A stretch of 45,805 bases of DNA, taken from positions 1 to 45,805 of IMG/VR virus record IMGVR_UViG_3300039454_000299. One strand, 5' to 3'. The notes under the pieces are model-generated. The model worked only from the letters and a program-made list of their open reading frames with translations. It ran no database searches and was not told where the DNA came from. The stretch comes from a virus. Position numbers and translations under genes: made by a program. Shown piece after piece: positions 8,619 through 25,122 of this stretch. The number at the start of each line of letters is the position of its first letter. The first letter of the stretch is position 1.

Positions 8619-9317
8619 ATGGGATCATCGCTGATCTCCGGACTGTGGCAGCAGACGCTTTGGGGCGGGCGCGGAGCCAATCTCGCGGGCAACCCCAATG
8701 TGCTCGACATCGAAAACTGTCTGCTCGATGTGCTCTACCGGCTGGGATTTCAGGGCGCAAACGATATCGGCCCGAGCTCCTGGGTGACGCCGGCGGAGCT
8801 CTATCAGTTTGCCGACGATGCCGCCAAAAAGATCGCCTACGAGGCGGGAGTGCTGATTACGGTGGACAGCTCCGTCACGGTGACGGCGGGCACGGCGACC
8901 TATAGCCTGCCCGCGGCGCACGTGTTCACGGTGGCGGCGGCGCTGGGCTCGTCTCTCTTGCGGCTGACGAGCGTGCGCGATCTATGGGCGCTCGATGCCG
9001 CCTGGCAGGGGACCGCGGGGGCGGCGGCGCGGGCGAGCCTGGATGCGGGCGGCGTAGGGACGATCACGCTCTATCCCAATCCGAACGCGGGCGGGACATT
9101 ACAGCAGGTGTGCCAGATGTACGCCCAGACGGTGACGCCGGGGACATCGGCGCTGCCGCTTGCGACCGTGCTTCAGGATTACTTTTCCTACCGGATGCTC
9201 GAGGGGGCGCGCTCGAAAGAGAGCGAGGAGCGGATGGAGGAGATGGGGCAGCATTTCCAGGCGAGGGCCGAGATGTACGAGCAGATCATGGAGCAGTATT
9301 GGGGGCCGGGGCAATAG
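8619..9317 (+). CDS. Structural protein, adaptor-like paralog 3 (232 aa), immediately upstream of the nozzle-like gene.
   Basis: Paralogous to 5437..6162 (LTSVRDLWALDAAW, TLYPNP, LQDYFSYRMLEGA). The stop abuts ATG 9318. Confidence 0.6.
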   Translation: MGSSLISGLWQQTLWGGRGANLAGNPNVLDIENCLLDVLYRLGFQGANDIGPSSWVTPAELYQFADDAAKKIAYEAGVLITVDSSVTVTAGTATYSLPAAHVFTVAAALGSSLLRLTSVRDLWALDAAWQGTAGAAARASLDAGGVGTITLYPNPNAGGTLQQVCQMYAQTVTPGTSALPLATVLQDYFSYRMLEGARSKESEERMEEMGQHFQARAEMYEQIMEQYWGPGQ

Positions 9318-12300
9318 ATGGGGTACGAACGCAAGAAGCTCCAGATCGTGGGCGGAGGCCTGAATCTGCTGCCGCCGGGAGACAAGGCGGCGGAAAAAGA
9401 CGCCCTGCTGCTGCAGAACTTCCGCACCGACCGGGACGGCAAATTCACCTCGCGCTACGGCTATACGGGATCGACGCGGTATAACGGCGCGGGCACGCTG
9501 CACTCGGCCATGGTGTTCAATACCGCGATCTACTGGGGCACGAGCTCGGGAAAGCTGTATTACGCGAGCGGCACCTCGCCCGTGGCCACCGGATTCGACG
9601 GCAACCGGCTGGGCATGGTGGGGATGCTCGGGTGGAACTGGATCGTCAACCGGGCGCAGCAGGGGCGGCACAATGTGGGAAGCGGCTATTCGGCATACGG
9701 AGTGGCGGCGCCGGCAAGCGGGCCCACGGCGGCCGCAGGCTCGGCCGGCAATCCCAACGGGACCTACTCGGTGTGGGTGACCTATGTGTATAACGACGCG
9801 GGCACGGGGCTCATGACCGAGTCCGACCCGTTTGCCACCGGCACCTCGATCACCGTAACCAATCAGCAGATCACGCTGACAGCCATTCCTACCTCGAGCG
9901 ACACGCGCGTGAACGGCCGCAATATCTATCTTTCGGGCGGCACTCTGGGGCAGGCCTATCTGGCGATTCCGTATGCATCGGCCTATGCCTCGATCGAAGA
10001 CAATACCACCACCACCGCGACCATCACGCTGAGCGATCTGGCGATCACCAACATGGGGATCGTGATGTCCATAACCAACGATCTGCCGCCCGCGGCATCG
10101 GGAGTGGGCGGGCCGTATTTCGACCGGCTGATCGCCTGGTCGACGGCGGACAATGTGAACCGGCTGTTCTGGACACCGGTGGGGCAGCCGCAATACTGGC
10201 CGGGCGCGGCCAATCCGGTGCAAGGCAATTGGGTGGATGTGGGCGCCGACGGAGAGGCCATTCTTTGGTGCACCTTCCACACCAACATGGTGGTCATCTA
10301 CAAGCAGCGCTCGATCTGGCGGCTGATCGGCGACGTGCTTACGGGGACGCTCGAGTGCATGGATCCGGGCATCGGGCTGACCAATGCGTTCGCGGTGGCT
10401 CCGGCCAGAAACGCGGACTACTTCGTGGGCCCGAACGGGCTCTACCGCAACAACCTGGATGTGGTCCAGGATGTGACCGGAGATATCCGGCCGCTGTTCC
10501 AGACGATTTCGCAGAACTCCTATCTCGACCAGCCTCCGGGCAACATCACCACGCAGGTGGTGACGGGGCCGGTGACCTCGTACAAGTGCGCGCTCGGCTA
10601 TGCCATGGGCAAGCTGTATCTGGGCTATACCGAAAACTCGACCGCGGGCATAGCGGCGCCGATTCTGGTGCTGCACGAAGCGAGCGGCCGCTGGAGCTAT
10701 TTCCGTTCGGGGCTGATGAGCACGGCGGTGGCGGGATTCCTGTTCGACGGCTCATCGATCTCGGCGCTGGGCACCGACGGCTCGGGCAACGGAGTGGCTT
10801 ACGGACTGGACGACTTCGCGGCCTGCGCCACGGCGGACGGGCCCAACGGCATCGATGTGGTGTACGGCTCGCACTATGAGGACGCGGGCATGCCCGACAA
10901 CCAGAAGAACTGGCTCGAGTGCGTGGTGGACTGCGAGGTGTCCTCGCCCGATTCGCTGACCGTATATGCCACCTTCGATACCGGCACGGCCACGGTGAAT
11001 CTGGCGGCCGCGGCGGGAGCTTCGCCGGCCTATCTGCCGCTCGGATCGATCGGCGGCGCGGCGGGCGCGGCCAAGCGCGTGCAGGCCAGCTTCCCGATCG
11101 GCCCTTACGTAAGCGGAGCGGTGCAGCCGGACGGGTATCTGGCCAAGAACATTGCGATCCGCATCGTGGGCTACGCCGCGACCAAGCAGGTGGTGATCCA
11201 CAACGTGTACCTCTACTACTACGTAGAGGCGCGCCTGGCGGCCGCGGCATCCACCCTGCCGAGCGACCTGGGCGTGGGCAAGGTGAAGCAGTGCAAAGAG
11301 CTCGAGCTCGATATCGATGCCTCGCTCGGAGCCGTGAACTGCAATATCTATAGCGATCTGCCGGGCAACCAGCTGGCGGTGCGGCAGACGCCGGCGATCG
11401 CGCAGAACAACGGCCGGGCCATCTGGAAGTTTCCGTTTCCGGTGACCGAAGGGTATCTGTGGCGGGTGGCGCTCACCACGGCCACGGCGGGCGGAGTGGG
11501 GATGTATGCGGGCGCGTTCCGCCTCTATTCGGCGCGCCTGCTGATGCGCGTCATGGGCGTGTATGTGGAGGCGTACGAGGCGGCGAACGGATTCGTTTGG
11601 GATTCGCAGGAGATGACGTTCGATAGCGGCCTGACGCATACGCCCCGCATGTACGCCATCGCGCTCACCGCGCTGCCGATCAAACGCTTCCGCGAAATTT
11701 CGCTGCAGATCGAGACCTTCGGCTCTCCGGTGACGCTCAATTTTCTGACGGATCTGCCGGGCAATGCGCAGGCGGTGCGCTTCACGACCACGGTGAATAC
11801 GGGAAGCGCGGGCCGAAGGTTCTACCGCATTCCGCTGCCCGCGGGCACGAGTGCGCCGATCGAGGGCCGCATGTGCCGCATTCAGCTATCGGGGGCGGCC
11901 AAGTTCATTCTGTACGAGGCCGCGGTCGAAGTGCTCGCGGTGGGCGTGTATGTGGAGGCGTACGAGGCGGCGGGCGGAGCGGTGTACGATTCGCGGGAGC
12001 AGGACTTTTCGACGCCGAAGGTAAAAGAGGCGCGCGAGCTCGAGCTCGATATCGAGACCACGGGCGCGGTCACGGCGCAGCTCTTGAGCGACATTACGAC
12101 CGCTCAGACATTTACGGCCGTGACCAGCGGACGGCAGAAGGTGATGCTGCCGCTCACGCTGAGCGCGGGGGGAGAGCAGTTCGTGGAAGGACGCCTGCTG
12201 CGGCTGATTCTTTCGGGCACGAACGCATTTCGCCTGTACGGCGCGCGGCTGAAGATCCGGGCCTTCGGCGAGTATCTGCTCGCGGCCGAGACTTCGGCGG

Positions 12301-13562
12301 GAGCGCTGTGGGATACGACCGATCTGGATCTGGGGATGCAGACGGTGAAGCAGCTGCGCGAGCTCGAGCTCGATATCTGGGCTTACGGCGGCTACACGGT
12401 GACGGTATATACCGATTTGCCGGGCAATGCCATGAGCGCGCGGGTGATCACGGGCGGGGCGGCCACCAACGGCCGCACCGCGGTCCAGATACCGCTGCCG
12501 CAGGGATGGGTGCCGGGCAACTACATCTTCGGCAGGCTGGTGCGGGTGACGATTACGAGCGCGTCGAACTTCAAGCTGTTCGGGGCGCGCATCCATGCCA
12601 GGCCCATCGGGGTATATGTGGAGAGCTATGAAGCGGCGGGCGGGGCGGTTTGGGACTCGATGGAGCAGGATCTGGGGTCGCCGCTCGATAAGTGCTTCGA
12701 CGAGGTGCGATTCGAGCTCGATACGGACGGGGCGGCGAACGTAGCCATCTACACCGATCTGCCGGGCGAGGCCATGACGGAGCGGGTAGGCGGGGCATTG
12801 ACCGCGGGCGCGACCGGACGCCACTGGGCCACCGTGCCCCTGGCCAATTTGGCGAGCGCTACACCGCCGTGGACGGTGGAGGGCCGCTCGATCCGCATGG
12901 TGGTATCGAGCGCGGCGGGATTCCGCATCTACCGGGCGCAGGTGCGGGCGGCGCGGGTGGGCCGGTATCTGGCGGCGAGCACGCTCAACGGGAACGACTC
13001 GCTGACTACGCTCGAATTCGATTTTGCAAGCGAGCGCGTGAAGCAGTACAAGAAGCTGGAGCTCGATGTGCGCGCCGACGGCGCTCTCACGCTCGAGCTA
13101 TTCACCAATCAGAGCGGGCAGATGGCGCTCGAGTATACGACCCAGGTGGTCACTCCCAACGGGCGGGCGACTTTTTATCTGCCGCTGCCGCCGGGTCTGC
13201 GGGGCCGGCTGCTGCGCATCAATGCGCAGAGCGCGAGCGCGGCGCGGATCTATAAGCTGCGGGTGTGGGCGAGGCCGCTCAACGAGCCCAAGGCCGATTG
13301 GGGCTGGACCGAATATCCGCTTGAGGGAAGCGAAGAGCTGCCGGCATGGAAAGACATTCCGGTACCGGAGACGCCTTCGGAGTTCAAATGGGCGGAACTG
13401 CCGGTAGAGCCGACCAAGCCGGAATGGACCTGGGCGCCTTTGCCGGTAGCTCCCACGGCGGGGCAGGATCCGGCGCAGTGGTTTTGGGCCAAGGTTCTGA
13501 CGGTGGATGAGACTCCGGATACGTGGAGTTGGGTAGACGTTCCTTTCGAGGTGAGCCAATAG
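9318..13562 (+). CDS. Large tail protein (1,414 aa). The N-terminal ~510 aa is nozzle/tail-tubular-B-like, followed by 6-7 tandem ~105-130-aa domain repeats and a Trp-rich C-terminal array.
   Basis: Largest tail-module ORF. The repeats are visible by eye (VYVEAYEAAxGxVWDS ... ELELDI ... DLPGN ... GR ... RLY). The nozzle assignment rests on position and size only. Confidence 0.7.
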   Translation: MGYERKKLQIVGGGLNLLPPGDKAAEKDALLLQNFRTDRDGKFTSRYGYTGSTRYNGAGTLHSAMVFNTAIYWGTSSGKLYYASGTSPVATGFDGNRLGMVGMLGWNWIVNRAQQGRHNVGSGYSAYGVAAPASGPTAAAGSAGNPNGTYSVWVTYVYNDAGTGLMTESDPFATGTSITVTNQQITLTAIPTSSDTRVNGRNIYLSGGTLGQAYLAIPYASAYASIEDNTTTTATITLSDLAITNMGIVMSITNDLPPAASGVGGPYFDRLIAWSTADNVNRLFWTPVGQPQYWPGAANPVQGNWVDVGADGEAILWCTFHTNMVVIYKQRSIWRLIGDVLTGTLECMDPGIGLTNAFAVAPARNADYFVGPNGLYRNNLDVVQDVTGDIRPLFQTISQNSYLDQPPGNITTQVVTGPVTSYKCALGYAMGKLYLGYTENSTAGIAAPILVLHEASGRWSYFRSGLMSTAVAGFLFDGSSISALGTDGSGNGVAYGLDDFAACATADGPNGIDVVYGSHYEDAGMPDNQKNWLECVVDCEVSSPDSLTVYATFDTGTATVNLAAAAGASPAYLPLGSIGGAAGAAKRVQASFPIGPYVSGAVQPDGYLAKNIAIRIVGYAATKQVVIHNVYLYYYVEARLAAAASTLPSDLGVGKVKQCKELELDIDASLGAVNCNIYSDLPGNQLAVRQTPAIAQNNGRAIWKFPFPVTEGYLWRVALTTATAGGVGMYAGAFRLYSARLLMRVMGVYVEAYEAANGFVWDSQEMTFDSGLTHTPRMYAIALTALPIKRFREISLQIETFGSPVTLNFLTDLPGNAQAVRFTTTVNTGSAGRRFYRIPLPAGTSAPIEGRMCRIQLSGAAKFILYEAAVEVLAVGVYVEAYEAAGGAVYDSREQDFSTPKVKEARELELDIETTGAVTAQLLSDITTAQTFTAVTSGRQKVMLPLTLSAGGEQFVEGRLLRLILSGTNAFRLYGARLKIRAFGEYLLAAETSAGALWDTTDLDLGMQTVKQLRELELDIWAYGGYTVTVYTDLPGNAMSARVITGGAATNGRTAVQIPLPQGWVPGNYIFGRLVRVTITSASNFKLFGARIHARPIGVYVESYEAAGGAVWDSMEQDLGSPLDKCFDEVRFELDTDGAANVAIYTDLPGEAMTERVGGALTAGATGRHWATVPLANLASATPPWTVEGRSIRMVVSSAAGFRIYRAQVRAARVGRYLAASTLNGNDSLTTLEFDFASERVKQYKKLELDVRADGALTLELFTNQSGQMALEYTTQVVTPNGRATFYLPLPPGLRGRLLRINAQSASAARIYKLRVWARPLNEPKADWGWTEYPLEGSEELPAWKDIPVPETPSEFKWAELPVEPTKPEWTWAPLPVAPTAGQDPAQWFWAKVLTVDETPDTWSWVDVPFEVSQ

Positions 13563-14549
13563 ATGCCTAGTGTGATACCGCCGCTGGCGCCGATCGCGGG
13601 CGTGCCGCAGCCGTTGATCGACGCGCTCAACGATCGCTTGCGCGTGATCGGAAACCTGACGGCGCCCTCTTCGGCGGGCGCTCTGATTTCGGGCACGCAC
13701 GTCCAGCGTGTGAGCGACTATCCTCCGGCCAAGCAGGTGCTTGGGACGCAGTTCGCGGAAAAGGACCGCGGCAATGTGGTGTACGAGGTGCAGAACCGCC
13801 AGGGAGCGCAGTATTGGGTGTATGTGGCGGGGCGCATGACGGGCACCATTTCGCCGGATCAGAGGCCCAAGGACCTTTCGCAGTACGATGCCGGATTCAG
13901 CTTTTTCGCCACCGATTCGGAGGCCAGCTATCACTGGACGGGATCGGCCTGGTCGAACGACAGCGCCAACGTGGTGATGGGAGCGAGCGCGCTCACCACG
14001 CTGAATACGATTCCGAAAGTGACGGCCAACGGAACGCTGGGCAATAGCGCGGTGACCGACGACGGAACCAATGTGAAGGTGACGGGGCGGAACGTAGGCA
14101 TTCTGACCACGCCGAGCGCTCCGCTGCACGTCAAATATGCGGCCGCCAATACTACCGGGACGACGGCGGCGCTGATTATTGATAACCCTTCAGGCGGCAC
14201 GCAGACCTCGCTCAGCCTGCGGATCAACGGCACAGCCGAGTGCGTGTTCCGGGCCGACAACTCAGGGAACGTGGCGCTTGCGCCCGGATCCGGCGGCAGT
14301 ACCTATCTTGGCTGGAGCGACCTGGGGACCCCGGGGTTCATCTATCTGCGCACCACTTCGAACTATGTGGATACCTCGAACAACCTGACGATGGCAGGCA
14401 ACGTGAATACCGGCGGGGTGTTCGAGGTGAACGGCGTACAGGTGGTGCGGGGACGGCAGACGGGGCCGGGATCGGCGCCTTCCACCTACAGCCAATCGTG
14501 GTGCAACAGTCTGCTGGCGGTGCTGCAGAATCACGGGCTCTGCACGTAG
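13563..14549 (+). CDS. Tail fibre protein (328 aa).
   Basis: Abuts the stop of the large tail gene. It is Gly/Ser/Thr/Asn-rich. The C-terminal ...SLLAVLQNHGLCT resembles the conserved ending of many phage tail-fibre proteins (from memory). Confidence 0.55.
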   Translation: MPSVIPPLAPIAGVPQPLIDALNDRLRVIGNLTAPSSAGALISGTHVQRVSDYPPAKQVLGTQFAEKDRGNVVYEVQNRQGAQYWVYVAGRMTGTISPDQRPKDLSQYDAGFSFFATDSEASYHWTGSAWSNDSANVVMGASALTTLNTIPKVTANGTLGNSAVTDDGTNVKVTGRNVGILTTPSAPLHVKYAAANTTGTTAALIIDNPSGGTQTSLSLRINGTAECVFRADNSGNVALAPGSGGSTYLGWSDLGTPGFIYLRTTSNYVDTSNNLTMAGNVNTGGVFEVNGVQVVRGRQTGPGSAPSTYSQSWCNSLLAVLQNHGLCT

Positions 14550-14621: not shown

Positions 14622-15449
14622 ATGAGCCCTATCGAGTTACTCGAGCCTTTTCCTGAATATGCCTGGCCGCTGGCGTGGCAGTGGCTCGTATCTAGTTGGA
14701 ACTACGTAGCGGACGATTTCACGCCGCGCACTCCTCAGGCGTTTGTCGAATACTCTCTCAGGCGTTACCAGCGCACCTTTGGGATATGCAGAGACCATCA
14801 GATCGGCGGGGTAGTGGGGTTCGAGCTAATGAACGAGCATCTGGCCATCGCGCATTTTCTGTTCGCCAAGTGGTTTCTGCGGCAGGGCCGGTTCACGGCG
14901 GCCGAGGGTGTGTACGAGGCCTGCGCGCGGCTGTTCGCGACTTCGAAGACATACAAGATTCTCGGGTTGGTACCGGAGCACAACCGGCTCGCGATCGGGA
15001 TGCTGGCGCGTCACGGGGTGCGGATCGAGGGAGTGCTGACGGGCTATTCGCGGGTCGAGGGCCGGCCGGTGAACGCGGTGGCGCTGGGCGCGACGAGGGA
15101 GGAATTTAGTGGGATTCAGCATGGGCGGCGCGTACGGCCAGGCGCAGCAGTCGTCGACCGGCAACCAGCAGAACACGTACAACCTGCCGGGGCAGAGCGG
15201 CCTGCAGGGGGCGCTGGCGGATTACTTCACGAGCCTGGTGCCGAGCCTGACGAGCGGGACACTGAGCCCGGACGTGCAGGCGATGAAGACGGCGAGCGCG
15301 GACCAGATCAACCAGAACGCGGCGAGCTCGACCGACCGGACGAACAGCTTCCTAGCGAGCCGCGGGTTCGGGCAGAGCGGACTGGTGGGACAAAACGCGC
15401 TTCAGACCGAACTCGGAAGGCAAGGCGACCTCGCGGCCAACGAGAGTAG
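14622..15449 (+). CDS. GNAT-family N-acetyltransferase (RimJ/RimL-like domain, ~165 aa) with a long out-of-frame overlapping tail.
   Basis: GVVGFELMNEHLAIAHFLF ... ILGLVPEHNRLAIGMLARHGVRIEGVLTGYSRVEGRPVNAVALGATREEF fits the acetyl-CoA-binding core of Acetyltransf_3-type GNATs. There is no stop until 15449, so the last ~340 nt overlap the next gene. Confidence 0.7.
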   Translation: MSPIELLEPFPEYAWPLAWQWLVSSWNYVADDFTPRTPQAFVEYSLRRYQRTFGICRDHQIGGVVGFELMNEHLAIAHFLFAKWFLRQGRFTAAEGVYEACARLFATSKTYKILGLVPEHNRLAIGMLARHGVRIEGVLTGYSRVEGRPVNAVALGATREEFSGIQHGRRVRPGAAVVDRQPAEHVQPAGAERPAGGAGGLLHEPGAEPDERDTEPGRAGDEDGERGPDQPERGELDRPDEQLPSEPRVRAERTGGTKRASDRTRKARRPRGQRE

Positions 15450-15588
15450 CTACGCCGGGCTGCAGCTGAACCAGAACACGCAATCGCTGCTCGCGGCCTT
15501 GAATTTCGCAACCAATCCGACCGGCTATACCCAGGCGCAGAACACCAATGGAAGCCAGTGGGGCGTGGCCGCGGGAGTCTCAGTCTAA
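15109..15588 (+). CDS. Internal virion (ejection-type) protein candidate (159 aa), Gln/Asn/Ser/Gly-rich.
   Basis: A strong GGAGG sits 7 nt upstream of GTG 15109. The composition is plausible, unlike the overlapping GNAT-frame tail. Confidence 0.55.
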   Translation: MGFSMGGAYGQAQQSSTGNQQNTYNLPGQSGLQGALADYFTSLVPSLTSGTLSPDVQAMKTASADQINQNAASSTDRTNSFLASRGFGQSGLVGQNALQTELGRQGDLAANESSYAGLQLNQNTQSLLAALNFATNPTGYTQAQNTNGSQWGVAAGVSV

Positions 15589-15589
15589 T

Positions 15590-15961
15590 ATGTTTCCTAC
15601 CTCTCTCCAATTTCCGACCCTGGTGAGCGCGTCGAGCGCGGTGGATGCCGCCTCCGGCGCGGCCGACGCCGCGAGCGGAGCACTCGCCCAGAAAAAAAAG
15701 AAGAAGCAGGACCAGCAGCAGCAGCAGCAGACGGGCGCCCAGCAGATGGGCGCGCCCGCGGTGGCGGCGCCTACGCCCACCCCAACGCCCGTGGCTACGC
15801 CTTACGGCAACGCGGTTTCGGCATTCAATAGCGGATCGCTATTGAACGCGCTTGCGCTCCAGAGCAACCAGAGTCCGATGCATTCCAACGCGCTGTCGCT
15901 ATTGGGCGCGCTGAATATGGCGATGTACGGCGCCAGTCTCGGAGGGGGCGGGGGGCAGTAA
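15590..15961 (+). CDS. Internal virion protein candidate (123 aa) with an FPTLVSA N-terminal motif and a poly-K/poly-Q tract.
   Basis: ATG lies 1 nt after the upstream TAA. The N-terminal motif is shared with the next gene. Contains A8 and (CAG)6 runs. Confidence 0.55.
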   Translation: MFPTSLQFPTLVSASSAVDAASGAADAASGALAQKKKKKQDQQQQQQTGAQQMGAPAVAAPTPTPTPVATPYGNAVSAFNSGSLLNALALQSNQSPMHSNALSLLGALNMAMYGASLGGGGGQ

Positions 15962-17337
15962 TGGATTTTCCGACGCTCGTGAGCGCGGGCTCGGCGGCCG
16001 GTTCGGCTTCGGGGGCCGCGAATGCCGCATCGGCGGCGCTGGGGACGAAGATCCGGCATGCGCAGGCGATCCAGCAGGCCATGCAGCAGCAGGCCAAGCA
16101 GGACGAGGAAGACCGGATCCGGCAGTTCGAGCTGCGCTTGCGGATGCAGCAGGATGGCTGGATTCCGGCGGACACGCCCCAGGGCGGCACGATCGCCAAG
16201 GGCGGACTGGGCTCCCGGCTCGATAATCCGGCAGCTCAGGGGCCGGGGCAGACCATGGCCGACCCGTGGGGGCAGAAGTGGTTCAAGCCGGAGCAAAAAG
16301 CAGTCACGCCGCAGCAGAGCTTCACCGATCTGCAGAGCGCGCTCGAGCATCATGCCCAGGTTTTAAATCCCGACGGATCGACCTTTCACGATCCCAACAC
16401 GGGCACGCCGGTGGCGCCTCCGCCGGGCAGAGTGGTGCAGGTGCCGGGCGGGCCTAAGGTCTACTTCCCGAGCGATGACGAACTGGCGGCCGACAAGGAC
16501 CGCGCGGAGAGAACAGCGGCGGCGAATAAGCCCGACAAGGCCGAACGATACACCTACAACCACTCGACCGACGCGCAGGGGAACGTGAACATCACGCGGG
16601 TGGGGCCGGACCAGACGCCCGAGGCGTGGAACGGCAAAGAGTGGGCCACGCTCGGAGCGGACAACCGGCTGGCGGCCAAGCAGGAGACCGGCGGGTATCA
16701 CTACTCCGACGACGATCAGGGCAACGTGCATGTGATCCGCGACGGCAAAGAGGTCGGGCTGATCAAGGGCGCGGGCAAGGCGAAAGACAACAGCGCGGCC
16801 GAAGAGCGGCGCCAGGACCGCGCGGAGCGGATCGAGCAGGGAAGGCGCGACCGGACCCAGAGACAGATCGAGACGCTGCAGATCAAAGAGCAGGAGCAGC
16901 ACGAGCTGCGGCGCAAATACGGAGACAAGCTCAATACCCCGGACGGCGAGCAGCTGATAGACCCCGACACCAAAAAGAGCGTGACGATGAACGCGGCGCG
17001 GCGCGAGCAGTATCAGCGCCAGTTCGAGCGGGCGACCGACATGGTGGGCGTGTATCAGGCGCAGCAGCGCAGCGCGCTCCGGTCGGTGAACGGCGGCGAG
17101 CAACAGCAGCCGCAGCAGCCGCAGACGCAGCCGCAGCAGCAGCCGCAGGCGGCGGCGCCCACAAGGCAGCCGCAGTACCGGCCGGGGCCGATGACGCGGG
17201 CGCGGGACCAGGCGGAGAAGACAGCCTCATCAAAGAAGCTCACTGACAAGGGCAAGGCGCTCGAATATATCCAGAAGGCCGGCGGTGATAAAGACAAGGC
17301 GCGCCAACTGGCGAGGGCGGATGGCTGGGAGTTCTAA
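15961..17337 (+). CDS. Internal virion protein candidate (458 aa), highly charged and Gln-rich.
   Basis: TAATG overlap with the upstream gene. Starts MDFPTLVSAGSAAGSASGAANAASAAL. Has an internal duplicated motif (YTYNHSTDAQGNVNITRVG and YHYSDDDQGNVHVIRDG). Confidence 0.6.
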   Translation: MDFPTLVSAGSAAGSASGAANAASAALGTKIRHAQAIQQAMQQQAKQDEEDRIRQFELRLRMQQDGWIPADTPQGGTIAKGGLGSRLDNPAAQGPGQTMADPWGQKWFKPEQKAVTPQQSFTDLQSALEHHAQVLNPDGSTFHDPNTGTPVAPPPGRVVQVPGGPKVYFPSDDELAADKDRAERTAAANKPDKAERYTYNHSTDAQGNVNITRVGPDQTPEAWNGKEWATLGADNRLAAKQETGGYHYSDDDQGNVHVIRDGKEVGLIKGAGKAKDNSAAEERRQDRAERIEQGRRDRTQRQIETLQIKEQEQHELRRKYGDKLNTPDGEQLIDPDTKKSVTMNAARREQYQRQFERATDMVGVYQAQQRSALRSVNGGEQQQPQQPQTQPQQQPQAAAPTRQPQYRPGPMTRARDQAEKTASSKKLTDKGKALEYIQKAGGDKDKARQLARADGWEF

Positions 17338-20300
17338 TGCCGGACATCTTCGATCAGGCCGCCTCAGAGCCGGCGGCTAGACCGGCGGGGAAACCGGCTC
17401 CGGCCGGAGACATCTTCGATCAGGTCGCGCCCGCGCAAGCAGTCAATCAGCAGCGAGTCCAGCCGCTGACCATGGACCCGAACCAGAAAACCGTGCGCGG
17501 ACTGGTGGCGCCCGGCACCCGGCTGAAGCAGTCGCAAATTCTGCCTTCGCCGCAGGCGGTAGATCAGGGCACGACGAATGTTGCGCAGGCGATGGTGCAG
17601 CCGACAGCGCCGCCGCCGATGCCGTTTCGCGTATTCGTGCCGCCGGGGCTGCGCAGTCCGGACGAGAACCGCGGAGAGCCGCTCCGAGGAAACAGCGATG
17701 CCGACCAGTTGGCCGCATTGCTGCGCTTTCCGTTTGTGGGGACAGGCATCGGGAACATCGCGACGGGTTTCGGCGATATGCAAAAGCCGGGCCTGCGGAA
17801 CAAGGCGGGAGGCGCCTCAGAGATCATCCGCGGCGGACTGGATGTGGCTACCCCGCTCCTACCGGATGCCATAGCCAAGGCGCCGCTCGAGACGATGCTG
17901 ACCATGGGTACCGGCATAGCCGCGCAGGCCGGGACGGAAAAGCTATTGAAGGCCGCGGGTGTGCCGCCGGAATACGCCGCTCTCGGCAGTGATCTGGTCG
18001 CCGTCTTCGGGGCGGGCGGCGCTTATGCCAAATTGCGGGCGCTCTCCAAGCTCCCCTTGGTGGCGGAAGCGAACACCTACGCCGGAAAGTTACGCACGGC
18101 TCTCGAGCGCGCCAAAGACACCAAGCTGTCCGCGAATGACCGAGCGGGAGCGCGGGCGCAGGCCGACTCGCTCATCGAGGGCCTGCGGAAGACCGAGCAG
18201 GGCAAGGCGCCGGCGGTCGCTGTAATCGCCCGGCCGCAGCAAGAAGATATTTTCGATCAAGCCGCAAAATCACAGGAGAAACCGCATGTCACTCAGCCGA
18301 CAACTGGCCGAGGCCAGACCCAAGAAAAGACCGGCAGCGCCCAAGGGCAGCCTGCTGCAGGCATTGAACAACGCCAACCCGGACCGGCCGGGAGCGCATC
18401 CCATACCGCAGCCGGCGCGCCGGCGTCCGCGAACGTAGAACCGAGCGGCACGGAGTGGACCCGCGGCGCCTGGGATATCGAGCCGCTCGAGGAGAAAGTG
18501 CGCAAGATCCGCGCAGTGGATGCCGAGCGGAACCGCGGCCGCGTGGACCGCATCGTGGCGGGCACGCTCGGGCGGCACCAGCTCACCGCCCAGGCCTATG
18601 CGGAGACCAATCCGCAGGCGGGGGCGGTCGAATCCGATCCTGCCTTCAATCCGATGGCGCTCGGCAAACACGAAGGCCGGGAGGTGACCCCGGACCTGAC
18701 GGCCGAGATCTCGCGGCACATGCGCGAGACCCCCGAAAAGCCGCTGGGGGGCGTGGGCCGGTTTTCGGGCGAGGCCGGAGAGGCGCCGCAGCAGTGGATC
18801 GGGCGGCTGATCGACGGGGTGCGCCGGGAGAGCGCCCGGCTCAAGCCGGGCCAAAAGACCCTGATCGTCACGAGCGGGCGCGATATGCAGGCGATCCGCG
18901 CGTGGGCGGCGGCGGGGCGGCAGGGCCACACGGTCGACCAGGATGTGCTCGCGGCCCGGTGGAAGAGCCAGCCGGGCGAGATGATGAATCTCGACCCGCG
19001 CACGGGCAAGATCACCGAAGTCACAACTGCCCAGGAGGGACTGAATTTCGTCCGCCATGCCGAGACCCCGGCCAACAAAAACGAGCATGTGCCGCGGGAG
19101 ATCAGAGAAGAGCGGCGGACCGAAGAGCGGCGCAACTACTACCGCGCGCTGCCGGTGACCGGAATCACGGCGGGCGATGAGCACGCCGGGCCGAACCAGC
19201 GCATCCGGCAGGTGCCGCTCGCGGATCTGGAGCCGACGCAGCCGCGCGAGGAAACGCTCGGGCCGGCCAAAGGGCGGGATGTGGAGCGCTACCGGGAGAT
19301 GCTGCGCGCGGGCTCGGAGCCGCCGCCGCTCGCGGGCGCGTTTAATTCCGAGACCGGCAAAGTGGAGCTGAGCGAAGGGCACCGCCGGTACGAGGCGCTC
19401 AAAGCGGAAGGGCGCACGCATGCGCCGGTGGTGATCGGAGGATTGGGAGAGCCGCCGGTGCGCGGGGCGGGTGGGGGTGAGGCAATCCAAGGGCTCAAAC
19501 CCGGGGAGCCGGGCTGGGTAGGCAACGTGCCGCTATCCCAGCTCACCGTGGATGCGCCGCGGTTTCAGTTCAAGCGCAACGTGGGACAGGGCGGCGCGGG
19601 CGAAGAGTTCCGCGAGGTGCGGCGCTGGGACGCGGAGAAAGCCGGGGTAGTGAGCGTATGGCGCGATCCTCGCGACGGCAAGGATTACATCGTCAACGGG
19701 CATCACCGTTTCGAGATGCGCTCGCGCATTCCGCTCGGGCCCGAAGACGGGCCGGAGAAGACACTCACCGTACGCTACCTCAAAGCGGAGACGGCCGAGC
19801 AGGCGCGCGCCAAGGGCGCGTTCATCAATATCGCCGAAGGGCGGGGCGAGTCGACCGACGCCGCCAAGGTATTCCGCGATTCCGGCATGACCATGGCCGA
19901 CCTCGAACGCGAGGGTGTATCGCTCAAAGGCAAAGTCGCGAGCGAAGGGCTGGCCATTTCGAAGTTGGCGCAGCCGCTGTATGACGGCGTCATGTCGGGC
20001 GAGATTGCCACCGCACGCGGCGCGATCCTCGGGCAGATCGAGAATCCGCAGCAGCAGCTCGCGGTGTGGGACCTGATGAAGCAGCGCGAGCGCGCCGGCA
20101 AACGGCTCACCAACGACCAGGTGGCCGAACTGATCCGGCTGCAGGCGCCGGCGCGGGAGGAGACCCAGGAGAACCTGTTCGGCGTGGAAGAGATGACGCG
20201 CTCGCTATTGCCGGAAAAGGCGGAGGTCTCCGAGTACGTACGCAAGCAGCTGGGCGGCGAAAAGCGGCTGTTTTCGGCGGTAGGGACGCAGGCCGCGGCG

Positions 20301-23300
20301 GAGAAACTGGGCGAGGCGGGAAATGTCATCAAGGCCGATGAGAATGCCAGTACCGCGCAGCGTGCCAGCCAGGCGCAGCTACTTTACGATAAGTACAGCA
20401 CCACCGCGGGGCCGATCGGCACGATGCTCGACCGCGCGGCGGAAAGGATCGCAGATGGAGAAGACCCCAACCGAGTCAAGCAAGAGACCTACCGGCAAAT
20501 CCGGGCCGCCCTCGGGGCCCAAGCCGATAAACTCACCGGAGTTCCGCAAGGAGATGCTGGACGAGTTGAAGGACTGGGCAGCCAAGGGGCACCTGAAACT
20601 GGCCGAGGGGAACGAAATCCGGAAGGCGTAGGCGCGGCGCCTACACCGGAGCCTGCCGGATCCGGGGGCGAGTACGGGCACAGCGCTCAAGACCTGAGCG
20701 TGCCTTTTGACGGCTCCAAACCGCGTAGCAGGGAAGAGACATTCCGGGAGGCGCGATGGGAAGCGGTTCCGCCGCGCCGCGGCGGGCCGCCGGTAATTCG
20801 CATGAACCGCCAGGCGCTCGACGCCATCAACGACGCGCTCGGATCCGCCCGCGGCGGAATACAAATGACAGCGGGGCAGGCCGACGCCTTGGCGGGCATT
20901 CTGGAAGGCCACGCGCGGCGGCTGGAGGAAGGCGGGGAACTATCGCCGGAAACCGCCCGGCATCTCCGCGCAATGGCGAGTGCCATTCGGTCCCATGGCG
21001 CCTCGCATGGCGCGGCGATATACCTTGCGGACGGAAGCATACCGCTCACGAGGCGCGGTCAAATTTTGATGGAAGAGCACGTGCACTCTGAGCAGGCCAA
21101 GCTCGGTGAAGACTTGCCGGCGGGTCCGGAGAGGGACAAAAAGGCCGCCAGAGTTCTTGCGGCGGTGGTGCAACATCCGGCCTTTTCCAAAGCGAGCGCC
21201 GCGCTCAGGACCGATCCGCTGTACCGCAACTTAGGGGCTCGAGAGATCGCGAACGAGATCACGGCGAAGCTGATAGCAGGAAGGCGCGGCGAAACGGGGC
21301 TGTCCCTTTCCGAGGGATGGAGCATACTGCGGAACTATTTCAGCGCGATCCGAAATGAATATGGAACAGAAGCTGCCAAAAGGATGACGCGCTATGCTGA
21401 CAATGAAAGGATAATTGAACGCCGTGCCGAAAGAGACCGAAGAGTTCAGGCCAAAATTCAGCGGACCTCCCTTGAAACCGGGACCGATGGAAAGCGCGTA
21501 CCTAGCCTGGGAGAAGGGCGGGGACGCAGGTCTTCTCAAACACCTTCTGAAGGTGGAGAGGTTGTGGAAGGCGAAGACCCGCCGAGCGCAACCCTCGACG
21601 TCTCCGGAAATGACGCCGCCCCCCAATCGCAAGTAGGCCCGCAACGCGACGCGGATAAACTCCGCGATCAGCAGAATCTACTCTTCCCCTCAGCTACCCT
21701 GCACGGCGGTATTCCACTCGACGTTGTCGGCGCCATCTTCAAGGCCGACATGCGCGAGATGCTCGAGCTGAAGGCCAAGCGGGACGCGGCGCGCGAGGCA
21801 CTCGAAAAATCCAAAGAGACGCCCGAGGACAAACGATTCGGCGCGAAGGTGCTCGCCTATTTCACCGGCGAGCGCGACGTGTGGGGGGCGCGCGTCAACC
21901 AGGTGATGGCGCGGCTGCGCAAGCTGGTGCCGGACGCGGTGGAGCAGGAAGCGCTGTCACTGATGCGCGACTTCAAGGGGCGCGAACAGGAGCTGACCCA
22001 GTTCCTGCAAGGCACACACCCGGCGCTGTTCGAGCAGGACGAGAATACACCTTTGCTGCGGGGGAGCCCCGGCTCGGGATATGCCGCGGCCATGGAGCAG
22101 ATCGCGAAAATGCGCCCCGCGATCCTGAAGGCTCTCAACCCCACGCCGCGCATGCTCGAGGCCGACCAGGCCCTGACGCGGATCGCGGCGGGCACGCTCA
22201 AAGAAGGCCAGCGGCTGGGCTTCCTCGATTCGCGCTGGACGGAGGAGCAGTACAATCCGCACATCCTCAACCGCAAGGGCGAGGGGGAATTCGCGACGCC
22301 CGCGCGCGACCGCTGGGGCAAGGCGCTGGGCGGGAAGGTCGGCAAGTATTTCGGGTTCGCGGAACGGCGCGAGTATCCCTCGCTATTGCACGCGGTGGCC
22401 GAAGGGCTGCGGCCGAAGACGCTGAACGCCTTCGACGCGTTCACCATTCATGGGGATAACTTCGCGACCGCGCGCGCCACACACCTGCTCGAGAAGCAGC
22501 TCGCCGAGACGGGCGTAGGCCGGTATGCGGCGCAGGGGCGGGCGCCCAAAGGCTGGGTGCGGCTGGCCCCGCATTCGAACGAATTCCGCAAGCTGGTGCC
22601 GTATCTGCGCGAAGGTCCGCCAGGCGGGAGCGCCGAGGCGGCGGCGGAAGTGGCGGCGCGCAAGATTGCCGGCATGCGCGCGGGCCAAAGCTACCACGAG
22701 GTCTCCGCGGCCGAGCAGGAGCGCGTAAGCGCGCTGATGGACGGCAAGACCGTGGAGCCGGATGTGGCGGAGCTCGGTCTGTGGGTGCCGCCGCACGTAG
22801 AAAAGGCGCTGCGGCCGGTTACGGATCCGGACTACCTCGGCCGGATTCCCGCATTCAAATGGATGCGCCACACCCAGAGTTATCAGAAGGCCGTGCAGTT
22901 GGGCCTTTCCATGTTTCATGCCGCGAGCGAGAACTACATGGCGCTAGCCAACATGGGACCGAAGGGCTGGGCCAAGGCGCTCAAGGCGGATGCGTTCGAT
23001 CCGGAGTTTGAGAAGGCGGAGCGCGACTTCATCGCGCACGGCGGCACCACCGCGATCCAGGGCAAGACGGTGGAAGCGTACAAAGCGCTCGAGCCGGGCT
23101 CGATCCCGTCCTGGACGGATATCTGGCGCAAAGCGCCGGTGATTCACCAGGCGGACGAACTGGCCGGCAAGATCACCGAGTTCACGTTCGGCAAGCTGCA
23201 GCGGCAGTTCAAGGTGACCGATTATCAGCTGCACATGGCGGCCTGGATGGCGGAGCATCCGGGGGCCACCACGGCGGAAGTGACCGCGGCCAAGGCATCC

Positions 23301-24086
23301 GTGGCCAAAGAGATCAATGCCGTGTATGGAGGGTTGCATACCGAGCTGCTGGGGATGAACCGGGCCACCACGGAGGTGGCGCGGGCGCTGTTGCTCGCGC
23401 CCGATTGGACCTTCTCGAACGTGTTCAACGTGAAGTATGCGCTCGAGCGCGGGACCGAAGGCGGGAAGCTGGCGCGCATGTTCTGGATCCGGCAACTGGC
23501 GGGCGGGGCGATCGCGACCCAGCTATTGAGCCTGGCGCTCTCCAAGCGGCTCTCGCCCAATCCCACGCAGGTGTATTTCGGCAAAGACAAAGAGGGCCAG
23601 GACATTTACCAGAACGTCTTTTTCAAGGGCGCGGCGGGCGACGCCATCAACCTGGTGCATAACGTATACGACTACGGCGCCGTGGAGGGCCTGGCGCGGA
23701 CGCTGCAGGCGAAGAGCGCGGGCCTGGTGCGCACCGGAGTGCAGGCGCTGACTAACCGCGATTACCTGGGGCACACGGTGGTATCGAAGGATCTGAACCC
23801 GATCGCGGCCACCGTCCGCGGGGCCTACAAGATCGGGGAGTCGCTGGCGCCGGTTCCGTTCTCGGTGGCGAACCTGAAGAACATGCTGATCGGGCCGCAT
23901 GCCGACGACTATACGGTTCCGGAATTTCTGACCACCTTCGTGGCGGGCAATCCGCCGCGGCATGAGCCGCCGCCCGGCTTCCGCATGGGCGAGGACGGTC
24001 TGGAGGAGGCGCCGGAGCCGGGGGAAGACGAGAACTCGATCTGGCGACAGATGCTGACGAACAAGCGATACGGGGGGACTCATTAG
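17337..24086 (+). CDS. Giant polyvalent virion protein (2,249 aa) with two ParB/Srx-like domains.
   Basis: TAATG overlap with the upstream gene. ParB-like motifs are VPLADLEPTQ...SEGHRRYEAL (nt ~19200..19436) and VPLSQLTVDAPRFQFKR...IVNGHHRFEM (nt ~19518..19727). DIFDQ occurs three times. It occupies the position of a T7 gp16-type core protein. Confidence 0.8.
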   Translation: MPDIFDQAASEPAARPAGKPAPAGDIFDQVAPAQAVNQQRVQPLTMDPNQKTVRGLVAPGTRLKQSQILPSPQAVDQGTTNVAQAMVQPTAPPPMPFRVFVPPGLRSPDENRGEPLRGNSDADQLAALLRFPFVGTGIGNIATGFGDMQKPGLRNKAGGASEIIRGGLDVATPLLPDAIAKAPLETMLTMGTGIAAQAGTEKLLKAAGVPPEYAALGSDLVAVFGAGGAYAKLRALSKLPLVAEANTYAGKLRTALERAKDTKLSANDRAGARAQADSLIEGLRKTEQGKAPAVAVIARPQQEDIFDQAAKSQEKPHVTQPTTGRGQTQEKTGSAQGQPAAGIEQRQPGPAGSASHTAAGAPASANVEPSGTEWTRGAWDIEPLEEKVRKIRAVDAERNRGRVDRIVAGTLGRHQLTAQAYAETNPQAGAVESDPAFNPMALGKHEGREVTPDLTAEISRHMRETPEKPLGGVGRFSGEAGEAPQQWIGRLIDGVRRESARLKPGQKTLIVTSGRDMQAIRAWAAAGRQGHTVDQDVLAARWKSQPGEMMNLDPRTGKITEVTTAQEGLNFVRHAETPANKNEHVPREIREERRTEERRNYYRALPVTGITAGDEHAGPNQRIRQVPLADLEPTQPREETLGPAKGRDVERYREMLRAGSEPPPLAGAFNSETGKVELSEGHRRYEALKAEGRTHAPVVIGGLGEPPVRGAGGGEAIQGLKPGEPGWVGNVPLSQLTVDAPRFQFKRNVGQGGAGEEFREVRRWDAEKAGVVSVWRDPRDGKDYIVNGHHRFEMRSRIPLGPEDGPEKTLTVRYLKAETAEQARAKGAFINIAEGRGESTDAAKVFRDSGMTMADLEREGVSLKGKVASEGLAISKLAQPLYDGVMSGEIATARGAILGQIENPQQQLAVWDLMKQRERAGKRLTNDQVAELIRLQAPAREETQENLFGVEEMTRSLLPEKAEVSEYVRKQLGGEKRLFSAVGTQAAAEKLGEAGNVIKADENASTAQRASQAQLLYDKYSTTAGPIGTMLDRAAERIADGEDPNRVKQETYRQIRAALGAQADKLTGVPQGDAGRVEGLGSQGAPETGRGERNPEGVGAAPTPEPAGSGGEYGHSAQDLSVPFDGSKPRSREETFREARWEAVPPRRGGPPVIRMNRQALDAINDALGSARGGIQMTAGQADALAGILEGHARRLEEGGELSPETARHLRAMASAIRSHGASHGAAIYLADGSIPLTRRGQILMEEHVHSEQAKLGEDLPAGPERDKKAARVLAAVVQHPAFSKASAALRTDPLYRNLGAREIANEITAKLIAGRRGETGLSLSEGWSILRNYFSAIRNEYGTEAAKRMTRYADNERIIERRAERDRRVQAKIQRTSLETGTDGKRVPSLGEGRGRRSSQTPSEGGEVVEGEDPPSATLDVSGNDAAPQSQVGPQRDADKLRDQQNLLFPSATLHGGIPLDVVGAIFKADMREMLELKAKRDAAREALEKSKETPEDKRFGAKVLAYFTGERDVWGARVNQVMARLRKLVPDAVEQEALSLMRDFKGREQELTQFLQGTHPALFEQDENTPLLRGSPGSGYAAAMEQIAKMRPAILKALNPTPRMLEADQALTRIAAGTLKEGQRLGFLDSRWTEEQYNPHILNRKGEGEFATPARDRWGKALGGKVGKYFGFAERREYPSLLHAVAEGLRPKTLNAFDAFTIHGDNFATARATHLLEKQLAETGVGRYAAQGRAPKGWVRLAPHSNEFRKLVPYLREGPPGGSAEAAAEVAARKIAGMRAGQSYHEVSAAEQERVSALMDGKTVEPDVAELGLWVPPHVEKALRPVTDPDYLGRIPAFKWMRHTQSYQKAVQLGLSMFHAASENYMALANMGPKGWAKALKADAFDPEFEKAERDFIAHGGTTAIQGKTVEAYKALEPGSIPSWTDIWRKAPVIHQADELAGKITEFTFGKLQRQFKVTDYQLHMAAWMAEHPGATTAEVTAAKASVAKEINAVYGGLHTELLGMNRATTEVARALLLAPDWTFSNVFNVKYALERGTEGGKLARMFWIRQLAGGAIATQLLSLALSKRLSPNPTQVYFGKDKEGQDIYQNVFFKGAAGDAINLVHNVYDYGAVEGLARTLQAKSAGLVRTGVQALTNRDYLGHTVVSKDLNPIAATVRGAYKIGESLAPVPFSVANLKNMLIGPHADDYTVPEFLTTFVAGNPPRHEPPPGFRMGEDGLEEAPEPGEDENSIWRQMLTNKRYGGTH

Positions 24087-24097
24087 GAGTTTGGGCG

Positions 24098-24340
24098 ATG
24101 TATTGGACTGTGGTCATCAGCGGCCTGGCCGTTGGCGGGCAGCTGCTCAACGTAATCCTGAATCTGAAACTCCGGGCGGCAGTGCTCGAGAGTGAACAGC
24201 GGGTGCTCGAGAAGGTGGAGCGCAAGTATCACTCGAAGGAGGCCTGCGAGGGAGAGCGCAAGGCCATGGAGCAGCGGCTTGAGCTGCTGACACTGAGCCC
24301 GGTGATGCTGGGGAAGAACCGACCGGGGAAGAGCAGGTGA
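24098..24340 (+). CDS. Small membrane protein (80 aa): one N-terminal TM helix plus a coiled coil. Holin- or spanin-like candidate.
   Basis: AGGAG lies 8 nt upstream. WTVVISGLAVGGQLLNVILNL is a hydrophobic helix. It sits at the end of the late operon. Confidence 0.55.
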   Translation: MYWTVVISGLAVGGQLLNVILNLKLRAAVLESEQRVLEKVERKYHSKEACEGERKAMEQRLELLTLSPVMLGKNRPGKSR

Positions 24341-24526: not shown

Positions 24527-24787
24527 GTGGACAAGCACCAGCGAACGCTGGAAGCGATTTTTGAAAAACAAGCAAATATCCCATGGTCGGAAATAGAGAG
24601 AATGCTAAAGAGCTTCGGCGCCGAGATCAGCGAGGGCCGGGGGTCGAGAGTGCGTATCGCGCTGAACGGGGTGCGCGCCGTGTTTCACCGGCCCCATCCG
24701 CAGAAGGAGACGGACCGGGGCGCAGTGGCTTCGATGAGACGCTATTTGGCGGAAGCAGGGTTCAAGCCGGAGGGTTTCCAACGATGA
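24527..24787 (+). CDS. hicA: Type II toxin HicA-family mRNA interferase.
   Basis: RTLEAIF...IPWSEIERMLKSFGAEISEGRGSRVRIALNGVRAVFHRPHPQKETDRGAVASMRRYL matches the HicA-family pattern as I remember it. It is paired with HicB through an ATGA overlap. Confidence 0.85.
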   Translation: MDKHQRTLEAIFEKQANIPWSEIERMLKSFGAEISEGRGSRVRIALNGVRAVFHRPHPQKETDRGAVASMRRYLAEAGFKPEGFQR

Positions 24788-25122
24788 ATTACAAGGGATA
24801 TGAGGCCGTAATCGATTTGGATGAGCACGCCGGTATTCTTCATGGAGAGGTGATCAACACCCGTGACGTGATCACGTTCCAGGGAAAATCCGTGAAGGAG
24901 CTGAAACGAGCTTTCGAAGGTTCGGTGGAGGATTACCTGGAATTCTGCGCTTCCCGGAACGAGGAGCCGGAAAAGCCGTTCTCGGGAAAGCTGATCGTCC
25001 GCATGTCTCCAGATCTGCATCGTCAAATTGCACTCGAAGCCCGGCGTCTAGGACAGAGCCTGAACTCGTACATCGTCGGCCGCTTAAAGGGGAATGCGCT
25101 TAAGGCCAAATCCGCCTCCTAG
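24784..25122 (+). CDS. hicB: Type II antitoxin HicB family, with a C-terminal ribbon-helix-helix-like DNA-binding region.
   Basis: MNYKGYEAVIDLDEHAGILHGEVINTRDVITFQGKSVKELKRAFEGSVEDYLEFCASRNEEPEKPFSGKLIVRMSPDLHRQIALEA is typical HicB architecture. Confidence 0.85.
   Translation: MNYKGYEAVIDLDEHAGILHGEVINTRDVITFQGKSVKELKRAFEGSVEDYLEFCASRNEEPEKPFSGKLIVRMSPDLHRQIALEARRLGQSLNSYIVGRLKGNALKAKSAS

Follow-up and report, generated by a model that had tools for sequence, protein, structure and literature searches.

A single gene of the viral DNA studied here (IMG/VR record IMGVR_UViG_3300039454_000299, positions 1 to 45,805, hereafter the window, meaning the whole stretch of 45,805 nucleotides) raises the question of where a protein of 2,249 amino acids (aa) acts, on the virion, inside the infected cell or in genome maintenance, and by which of its parts. 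The gene lies at 17337–24086 (+) and is one uninterrupted open reading frame (ORF). A preliminary description, made from the sequence alone, had presented its product as a polyvalent virion protein with two tandem ParB/Srx-like domains and a triple DIFDQ motif, occupying the slot of a T7 gp16-type core protein and taking about 15% of the genome. The first and last 147 bases of the window (1–147 and 45659–45805) are identical, which marks it as a circularly closed assembly and the genome as complete at ~45.66 kb. The guanine plus cytosine content is 63.7%, and the measured share of the ORF is 14.8%, in line with the earlier figure. The identical 2,249-aa protein is present on independent metagenome contigs and its architecture is common to its relatives, so an assembly or fusion artefact is ruled out.

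The answer we favor, with a probability of about 0.65, is that the giant gene specifies the largest of the internal (ejection) proteins of a short-tailed phage whose portal and adaptor are of SU10 type, that it stands in the gp16 slot, and that it is built as a chassis for effector delivery. The chassis would consist of a disordered leader carrying DIFDQ twice, a Gly-rich N-module followed by the third DIFDQ, and a helical C-module of ~790 aa, and it would bring the protein into the procapsid. At infection, the chassis would bring the protein out via the nozzle and help to build or extend a trans-envelope conduit for the DNA. Exchangeable cargo lying between the chassis parts, here a permuted histidine phosphatase, a solitary ParB/Srx domain, a complete ParB N-domain with a helix-turn-helix (HTH) domain, and a module with the motif EExxHxxQ, would enter the cytoplasm with the leading DNA end, before any phage gene expression. 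Nucleotides, phospho-substrates and DNA would be its targets there, in the service of anti-defence or takeover. Packaging and ejection are proposed from synteny, from the architecture of the family and by analogy with gp47 of phage phi24B and gp20–24 of SU10, and the roles given to the motif and the cargo activities are putative in the same way.

The domain content of the protein depends strongly on how it is searched. With the full-length protein, hmmscan against Pfam returns zero families even at E<=1, the PDB sequence search gives nothing useful, and the initial homologue search gave three hits only, swamped by low-complexity words. NCBIfam gives a CobC-like match only, below threshold. The Pfam scan was repeated on pieces of ~300 aa and only then did His_Phos_1 appear (321-aa piece, E 2e-8). 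Whole-protein scans can overlook real domains in proteins as long and compositionally biased as this one. Piecewise scans and comparison with relatives resolve the anatomy into seven parts, and the long low-complexity linkers reported earlier are indeed present and are P/Q/A/G-rich. The earlier statement that most of the length has no nameable domain now holds only in part, since a permuted histidine phosphatase and a ParB N-domain with an HTH can be named, and the named domains together with three recurrent unnamed modules cover most of the globular sequence.

The family is defined by the C-module (aa 1461–2243, 21717–24065, +), which is conserved and mostly helical. In an exhaustive HMMER search, the number of representative clusters with this module is 567 at E<1e-3 and falls to 280 at E<1e-30. 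Its place is nearly always at the C-terminus: among 157 relatives that look full-length (907 to 4,141 aa), a median of 20 aa separates the end of the module from that of the protein. No Pfam family matches it in the query or in the 44 relatives that were scanned. Its AlphaFold2 (AF2) model is mostly helical, with a predicted local distance difference test score (pLDDT) of 73.7 and a predicted template modelling score of 0.75, and Foldseek finds no match to the model in the PDB below E 0.9. Against BFVD, 44 matches are found at E<=1e-3. They are C-terminal pieces of viral entries named “large polyvalent protein”, fused to LT_GEWL, Zeta-toxin, RelA/SpoT, helicase or ADP-ribosyltransferase domains; E. 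coli phage PTXU04 and Arthronema virus TR020 are among the viruses represented. The preliminary description had noted a C-terminal region of ~800 aa with a hydrophobic segment. The region stands as this conserved module, while the segment is weak (aa 2049–2069, below 1.1 on the Kyte-Doolittle scale). The highest 19-aa Kyte-Doolittle window of the whole protein reaches 1.23, and the best windows are located in the N-module. Transmembrane helices were considered and rejected, as none is convincing by hydropathy.

What lies upstream of the C-module varies widely. Across the relatives, as few as 83 and as many as 2,278 aa separate the N-module from the C-module. The cargo of the 44 scanned relatives includes ddrB-ParB (8), His_Phos_1 (10), Zeta toxin, Sno/SNF2 helicases, radical SAM, methyltransferases, GNAT and 2H, as well as GGDEF, RelA/SpoT, PBECR1, FtsK-gamma and DnaJ. 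In the relative P0078, an SLT transglycosylase lies at the N-terminus (E 3.8e-26, aa 17–124). Such cargo is the repertoire of phage polyvalent proteins (PMC5512222), and the earlier concept of an ejected polyvalent protein is upheld by these relatives. A modular chassis-plus-cargo architecture is thus shown across more than 150 relatives.

The second line of evidence comes from the N-terminus. The leader (aa 1–114, +) is Pro/Gln-rich and carries two copies of DIFDQ, the first at aa 3–7 (17343–17357, +) and the second at aa 25–29 (17409–17423, +), identical to the first at 15 of 15 nucleotides. The third copy is found at aa 304–308 (18246–18260, +), directly after the N-module. The motif had been counted three times before, and there are exactly three copies, with none elsewhere in the six frames of the window. 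The third copy differs from the other two by three nucleotides, all synonymous, which indicates conservation at the protein level. In shuffled versions of the protein some 5-mer is present three times in 36 of 2,000 shuffles, so the triple taken alone is only mildly unusual, and it is the pattern across the family that is decisive.

Of 126 relatives, 45 have some exact 4-mer with an aromatic residue twice in their first 60 aa, compared with 0–2 in other 60-aa windows and a shuffle mean of 0.7. When a 5-mer with one mismatch is accepted, the N-terminal duplication is found in 62 of 126, and the controls over both criteria give 0–4 in other windows and a shuffle mean of 0.7–2.5. The median start of the first copy is residue 5 and the median spacing of the copies 18.5 aa, and an independent IMG/VR set shows the doubled motif as well. 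From protein to protein the peptide changes, but its copies within one protein agree (DIFDQ, PDSFM, GWKMEDADA, LLGYD, SWAVSPEDFL, ITRWDASGNP, HGPWEDY). The anchor residue is Phe in 60%, Trp in 27% and Tyr in 13%, and Asp is common at +1. A further copy is present in 25 of the 77 relatives with an N-terminal pair (5.9 expected), and in six of the seven such proteins with a detected N-module it follows this module by ~10–70 aa, the same layout as in the query. DIFDQ is one instance of a family-wide duplicated aromatic peptide, often with a third copy after the Gly-rich N-module. The agreement of the peptide within proteins and its divergence between them point to recognition by a co-evolving partner, which may serve packaging, exit or processing.

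The N-module itself (aa 115–292, 17679–18212, +) is Gly/Ala-rich and weakly hydrophobic (GTGIGNIATGFG, AVFGAGGAYA), with glycine-zipper-like stretches. It is common to about 25–28 relatives and lies near their N-termini.

A bolder proposal, which we put forward tentatively and consider possible but less probable than its negation, is that the co-varying doubled aromatic peptide is a targeting signal not described before and marks out, in podoviruses that infect Acidobacteria and related hosts, a programmable chassis for effector delivery. The signal would attach the giant protein to a co-evolving partner. This partner could be the portal, the scaffold, the capsid interior or a neighbouring ejection protein if the signal serves packaging, or an envelope component if it serves exit, and any cargo placed between the N- and C-modules would be carried into the host. 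The same proposal, with the same reserve, would make the cargo of this protein include the first circularly permuted histidine phosphatase, in the role of an injected anti-defence or takeover enzyme.

The candidate phosphatase is the first cargo domain of the query (aa 373–590, 18453–19106, +). The match to PF00300 (E 2e-8, 34.5–35.8 bits) is above the gathering cut-off of 21.7, as are those of 10 of the 44 scanned relatives, and relatives reach E 6e-24. In native order, the match starts only at profile position 30–31, and the canonical N-terminal beta-strand with the RHG nucleophile motif is absent from the N-terminus of the domain. In an alignment of 17 sequences, the query and 16 relatives, the module instead closes C-terminally with a conserved GIYFxRHGETxxN, which in the query reads LNFVRHAETPANK; the catalytic strand there contains the RHAET motif (aa 573–577, 19053–19067, +). 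In one relative (P0014), the C-module begins within ~35 residues after the RHG motif, a spacing that leaves no room for a second phosphatase domain. When the end segment is moved to the front in silico, the match reaches profile positions 1–3 and gains 7–10 bits in four of four proteins. The region is accordingly read as a circular permutant and not as a canonical histidine phosphatase. In the query, Arg573-His574 and the second Arg (LGRHQLTA) are still present, and Ser513 (VTSGRD) stands at the position of the second catalytic His, where other relatives have VTHYRD. A sequence search of this piece against the PDB gives nothing useful.

The two ParB/Srx-like domains of the preliminary description carry their motifs at the places given there, and the second is now supported by its fold and the first by profiles. 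The second domain belongs to Module D (aa 720–1075, 19494–20561, +), in which a ParB/Srx N-domain (~725–835) is followed by an HTH-type domain (~836–945) and a helical extension. Its motifs are VPLSQL...RFQFK (aa 731–746) and NGHHRFEM (aa 787–794). The AF2 model of aa 720–945 has a pLDDT of ~90, and the top 29 Foldseek matches in the PDB are all ParB, Noc, Spo0J or KorB. The alignments extend over about 220 columns, across both N-domain and HTH, with probability 1.0 and a best E of 5.8e-6, at TM-scores of just 0.33–0.45 on the target length. On this model, aa 720–945 can be assigned with confidence to a ParB/Srx fold plus an HTH DNA-binding domain. The profile search suggested earlier, with the Pfam ParBc model (PF02195), gives no match to either domain even at E<=10; the ParB assignment is based on the PHROG profile and the comparison of folds. 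The Module D profile has no match in the PDB by sequence, and the second domain matches phrog_26387 weakly (E 0.005). The DdrB-like ParB (PF18763) has no match in the query either; the ddrB-ParB of the relatives is a separate module that aligns with neither query domain.

Module D has conserved motifs of its own, DPxRFQ(F/Y)K and NIAEGRG (INIAEGRG in the query). Its box II is NGHHR (aa 787–791), and GHHR is the consensus of 11 sequences, with one fragment reading GSNR. An hhalign comparison with a Spo0J sequence is non-significant (probability 0.2%) and in register, and was used as a motif map only; in this map GHHR pairs with GERR, and box III INIAE, opposite ENLQR, retains the Asn and lacks the Glu. 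By this non-significant mapping, the ParB modules appear to keep the Arg of G-x-x-R and not the GERR/ENLQR signatures of the CTPase-type ParB.

Module D is the only part of the protein with BLAST-level relatives in sequenced phages. One homologue is a 2,571-aa gp16-slot protein of Prochlorococcus phage P-SCSP1; the cryo-electron microscopy paper on P-SCSP1u contains no proteomic evidence for its giant protein. Module D also matches phrog_21, labelled “portal protein”, at E 6e-66. The match covers positions 1006–1360 of the 1362 in the profile, that is, the last 355, which represent a fused cargo module, and the label was rejected. Taken at face value, it would mis-annotate the giant gene, and it reflects portal-cargo fusion proteins.

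The first ParB/Srx-like domain (aa 619–700, 19191–19436, +) has the motifs VPLADLEPTQ (aa 626–635) and GHRRYEAL (aa 681–688). It matches phrog_1033, “ParB-like partition protein”, at E 2.4e-6, and when it is aligned with its sole homologue, in relative P0096, the pair matches the family of the second domain by hhalign (probability 88.9%, P 2.4e-6). The homologue reads DGHHR. These profiles suggest a ParB/Srx-like domain; a sequence search against the PDB gives nothing useful. The hidden Markov model (HMM) of the second domain does not detect the first even unfiltered at E<=100, which indicates that the two are not the product of a recent duplication.

Module E (aa ~1140–1445, 20754–21671, +) is a recurrent cargo module found by jackhmmer in 14 relatives. 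It has no match in Pfam, PHROG or NCBIfam. Its conserved EExxHxxQ (aa 1246–1253, 21072–21095) has no family or structure match and might be a metal-binding or catalytic site. A self-processing zincin peptidase was considered for the query and rejected, its motifs (HExxH or HxxEH) being absent.

The departures from canonical motifs raise a first alternative, that the protein is packaged and ejected but its middle modules are degenerate and serve as DNA- or nucleotide-binding or spacer elements, not as catalytic effectors. Such modules might, for example, hold or protect the leading genome end or form part of the conduit. Ser in place of the second catalytic His in the query and its closest relatives, RHA in place of RHG in the query, and the GHHR and INIAE boxes of the second ParB domain, as placed by the non-significant Spo0J alignment, speak for this explanation, and the HTH retained in that domain would suit the binding of a DNA end. 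The wider family speaks for activity: 16 relatives, at no more than 25–50% identity, retain RH(G/A)ET together with the second Arg and the strand around it, which argues for a selected active site, and the same position in relatives holds plainly enzymatic cargo such as SLT, Zeta toxin, radical SAM and helicases. We regard degenerate, non-catalytic middle modules as unlikely, though it is the strongest of the competing explanations.

The genomic context bears on whether the protein is internal to the virion at all. The gene was said to close the run of internal-virion-type genes, and the structural operon does end with it. Its place in the gp16 slot is also borne out, since it follows genes in the nozzle and needle positions and then small and medium proteins, an order kept in more than 40 related loci. 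The genome has a portal gene (39347–41575) with a weak match to the SU10 type, putative scaffold and capsid genes (42328–44060) and an SU10-type adaptor (8619–9317, +; SU10_adaptor in Pfam, E 1.2e-9). After the adaptor come a gene of 1,414 aa at the place of the SU10 nozzle and one of 328 aa at that of the tail needle (together 9318–14549, +). This region matches phrog_3287, a virion structural protein, and the 328-aa gene matches the tail needle phrog_1219 weakly (E 0.016). The nozzle is assigned by position. The positions follow the gene order of SU10, in which the five genes after the nozzle and needle (gp20–24) are ejection proteins by proteomics (PMC9509320).

Between the needle position and the giant gene, a 155-aa Gly/Ser/Gln-rich protein stands in the gp14 position (15121–15588, +). 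It is called on public contigs, and its orthologues (MGLSFGG...SPNVQA...) have the same position. A 458-aa protein stands in the gp15 position (15961–17337, +), its stop overlapping the start of the giant gene, and a 137-aa ORF (15548–15961) lies between the two. Related loci have a gene of 420–740 aa directly upstream of the big gene, and the 458-aa protein is taken as the gp15-position partner by size and synteny, the means by which homologues of ejection proteins are usually matched (PMC8954989). The order [150–250 aa] [410–740 aa] [big protein] is observed in 43 IMG/VR loci, mostly on contigs of 28–49 kb, and more distant members have an additional gene of 850–1,240 aa further upstream. 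The gene order in related loci mirrors that of T7 gp14/15/16.

Several other features of this region can be described. The 137-aa ORF and the 458-aa protein have the N-terminal peptide FPTLVSA(S/G)S in common, and the 137-aa ORF, if read from an internal Met, would begin MFPTSLQFPTLVSA, an FPT doublet. Orthologues of the 458-aa protein begin with similar F-(A/P)-x motifs (MAQFAPMMSA, MGSFPALPSG), and the putative ejection proteins of this phage may in general carry aromatic peptides at their N-termini. A 275-aa ORF (14622–15449) overlaps the 155-aa ORF, which is preferred by public gene calls; the longer ORF may be spurious, or the region may have overlapping genes. There are two SU10_adaptor-like genes, the one given above and another at 4478–5437, with a beta-helix tailspike between them (6179–8599). 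The gene at 4478–5437 has a further match, to tail-fibre PHROGs over their first ~80 residues, and the adaptor fold appears to have been duplicated or reused as a fibre-docking module.

A protein of this length in a structural operon next to tail genes, with extended low-complexity linkers, could also be an external or tail-associated structural protein (a fibre, a tape-measure-like ruler or a decoration) that stays on the particle. No beta-helix, collagen, fibre or receptor-binding signature is found in it by Pfam, and tailspike and fibre functions are already assigned to 4478–8599. Phosphatase, ParB, helicase, toxin and ppGpp/c-di-GMP-type cargo would make sense only inside a cell, and the gene order matches gp14/15/16. 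An external location is for these reasons quite improbable.

The hosts of the family can be approached through the C-module. Its relatives are found in metagenome-assembled genomes of Bryobacterales/Bryobacteraceae, with Bryobacterales matches at 62% and 43% identity, and in Thermoanaerobaculia, where one is integrated in a complete chromosome (L052, OY970284.1, 2,375,239–2,389,281) and is a candidate inducible prophage. These relatives point to Acidobacteriota hosts and to temperate members, and the host of the present phage is probably an acidobacterium of this phylum. Genes for a serine recombinase (Resolvase), a NUDIX hydrolase and an HTH regulator of the LuxR/GerE type lie in the non-structural half of the genome (28188–28769, 30621–31178, 35136–35765 (-)); taken with the integrated relative, they suggest a temperate lifestyle. 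A HicA/HicB toxin-antitoxin pair is located at 24602–25122, ~500 bp downstream of the giant gene (precomputed Pfam matches, public contigs), and between them lies an 80-aa ORF (24098–24340) with a hydrophobic N-terminus, which could be a holin or membrane protein.

That the protein instead stays outside the virion and serves the maintenance or partition of a plasmid-like or temperate phage, using its ParB modules for segregation or silencing, is very improbable: the serine recombinase, HicAB, the LuxR-type regulator, the integrated Thermoanaerobaculia relative and the full ParB N-domain plus HTH layout of the second domain would fit it, but neither a ParA partner nor a C-terminal ParB dimerisation domain is found, the modules lie inside a 2,249-aa protein co-oriented with the preceding structural gene and overlapping its stop, and many family members that have no ParB domain keep the C-module.

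The reading of the giant gene as an ejection protein with a delivery chassis has its own difficulties. We infer presence in the virion both for this protein and for all of its sequence-level relatives. Between the C-module and T7 gp16, or any ejection protein of solved structure, no similarity can be detected, and HMM and hhalign comparisons show none to phi24B gp47 or to the 2,571-aa protein of P-SCSP1. The N-module, a part of the proposed chassis, is detected in just 28 of 157 relatives. The query has no strong transmembrane segment (maximum Kyte-Doolittle window 1.23), no peptidoglycan hydrolase by Pfam and no zincin HExxH processing peptidase. The first ParB/Srx-like domain has an AF2 pLDDT below 50 and was aligned with one homologue only, and the failure of ParBc at E<=10 counts here as well. 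The cargo may also be catalytically compromised, with Ser513 for His, RHA for RHG and GHHR/GHRR for GERR.

If the ejection reading is correct, its value lies in a process that is poorly understood, namely how ejection proteins of short-tailed phages are loaded into the procapsid and leave it. A motif that is invariant in position and variable in sequence, a conserved chassis and natural swaps of cargo in more than 150 proteins would make the rules of packaging and translocation testable. The catalogue of injected effectors would gain a permuted histidine phosphatase and a complete ParB N-domain with an HTH, neither of which is caught by standard Pfam models. The ~790-aa C-module represents a large unannotated family (567 representative clusters) with no Pfam or PDB counterpart, and the analysis gives a first functional picture of a putative virion protein from phages of Acidobacteriota, an understudied host group.

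Among known systems, T7 gp16 and the gp16-like proteins (Swanson, Hou & Cingolani 2022, PMC8954989) offer a close likeness in position. The query is likewise the last and largest of a small/medium/large trio, and its family is likewise mosaic and fast-diverging. T7 gp16 has an N-terminal SLT domain, as does the relative P0078; the preliminary description could not recognise a lytic transglycosylase in the query, and Pfam finds none. No similarity of sequence or fold to T7 gp16 is found in the query by Pfam, PHROG or Foldseek of the C-module. The gp16-like proteins have 609–1,337 aa (PMC8954989), and the query, at 2,249 aa, is far larger and differs from T7 gp16 in having no clear membrane-spanning helix.

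Compared with the CTP switches of the ParB/Spo0J, Noc and KorB type, the model of Module D superposes on the N-domain and the HTH, and by sequence G-x-x-R and the box III Asn appear to be retained. Module D differs in its box II, GHHR in place of GERR, and in its own DPxRFQ(F/Y)K motif. With branch 1 of the histidine phosphatases (PF00300: dPGM, SixA, CobC, PhoE), the query has RH(G/A)ET and the second Arg in common. It differs from them by the C-terminal position of the RHG strand, by Ser513 and by being embedded in a giant protein of virion type.

The doubled peptide can be set beside the capsid-targeting sequences of T4, the cargo-loading peptides of encapsulins and the Tol/Ton boxes of colicins. 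These are short terminal peptides that direct cargo to a shell or a translocation partner, and they lie in a disordered leader, sometimes in several copies. The peptide of this family differs from them in being N-terminal, aromatic-centred, duplicated ~18 aa apart and variable between proteins, and the comparison is one of layout, with no sequence relationship claimed.

A further close likeness is to the polyvalent proteins (P1 DdrB/DarB, N4 vRNAP-type, phi24B gp47; Iyer et al. 2017, PMC5512222), which likewise place unrelated domains on low-complexity linkers, whose genes also lie among late virion genes, and among which a ParB/Srx domain, as in the query, is found. The query has at least two disparate domains (His_Phos_1, ParB/Srx twice, and two to three recurrent modules), and its gene ends the structural operon of a complete phage genome of ~45.7 kb. 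The domains of the polyvalent catalogue (LPD, MuF, zincin MPTase, ddrB-ParB, PBECR) are absent from the query by Pfam, and the relatives that share the C-module have ddrB-ParB (8 of 44), PBECR1, 2H and RelA/SpoT. The conserved C-module of the query differs in not being a Pfam family. A search of the text of the 2017 paper (PMC5512222) gives no mention of histidine phosphatase, phosphoglycerate mutase or phosphatase, and no description of a doubled N-terminal motif was found in it. An analogous polyvalent protein, the 2,811-aa gp47 of phi24B, was found by mass spectrometry in virions after purification and has been put forward as an ejection protein (bioRxiv 10.64898/2026.04.10.717836). Polyvalent virion proteins and the ParB domains within them are thus of an already known kind, and what is new, as far as the searches show, is the C-module family, the doubled co-varying motif, the permuted histidine phosphatase as cargo, and a complete ParB N-domain with an HTH that standard models miss.

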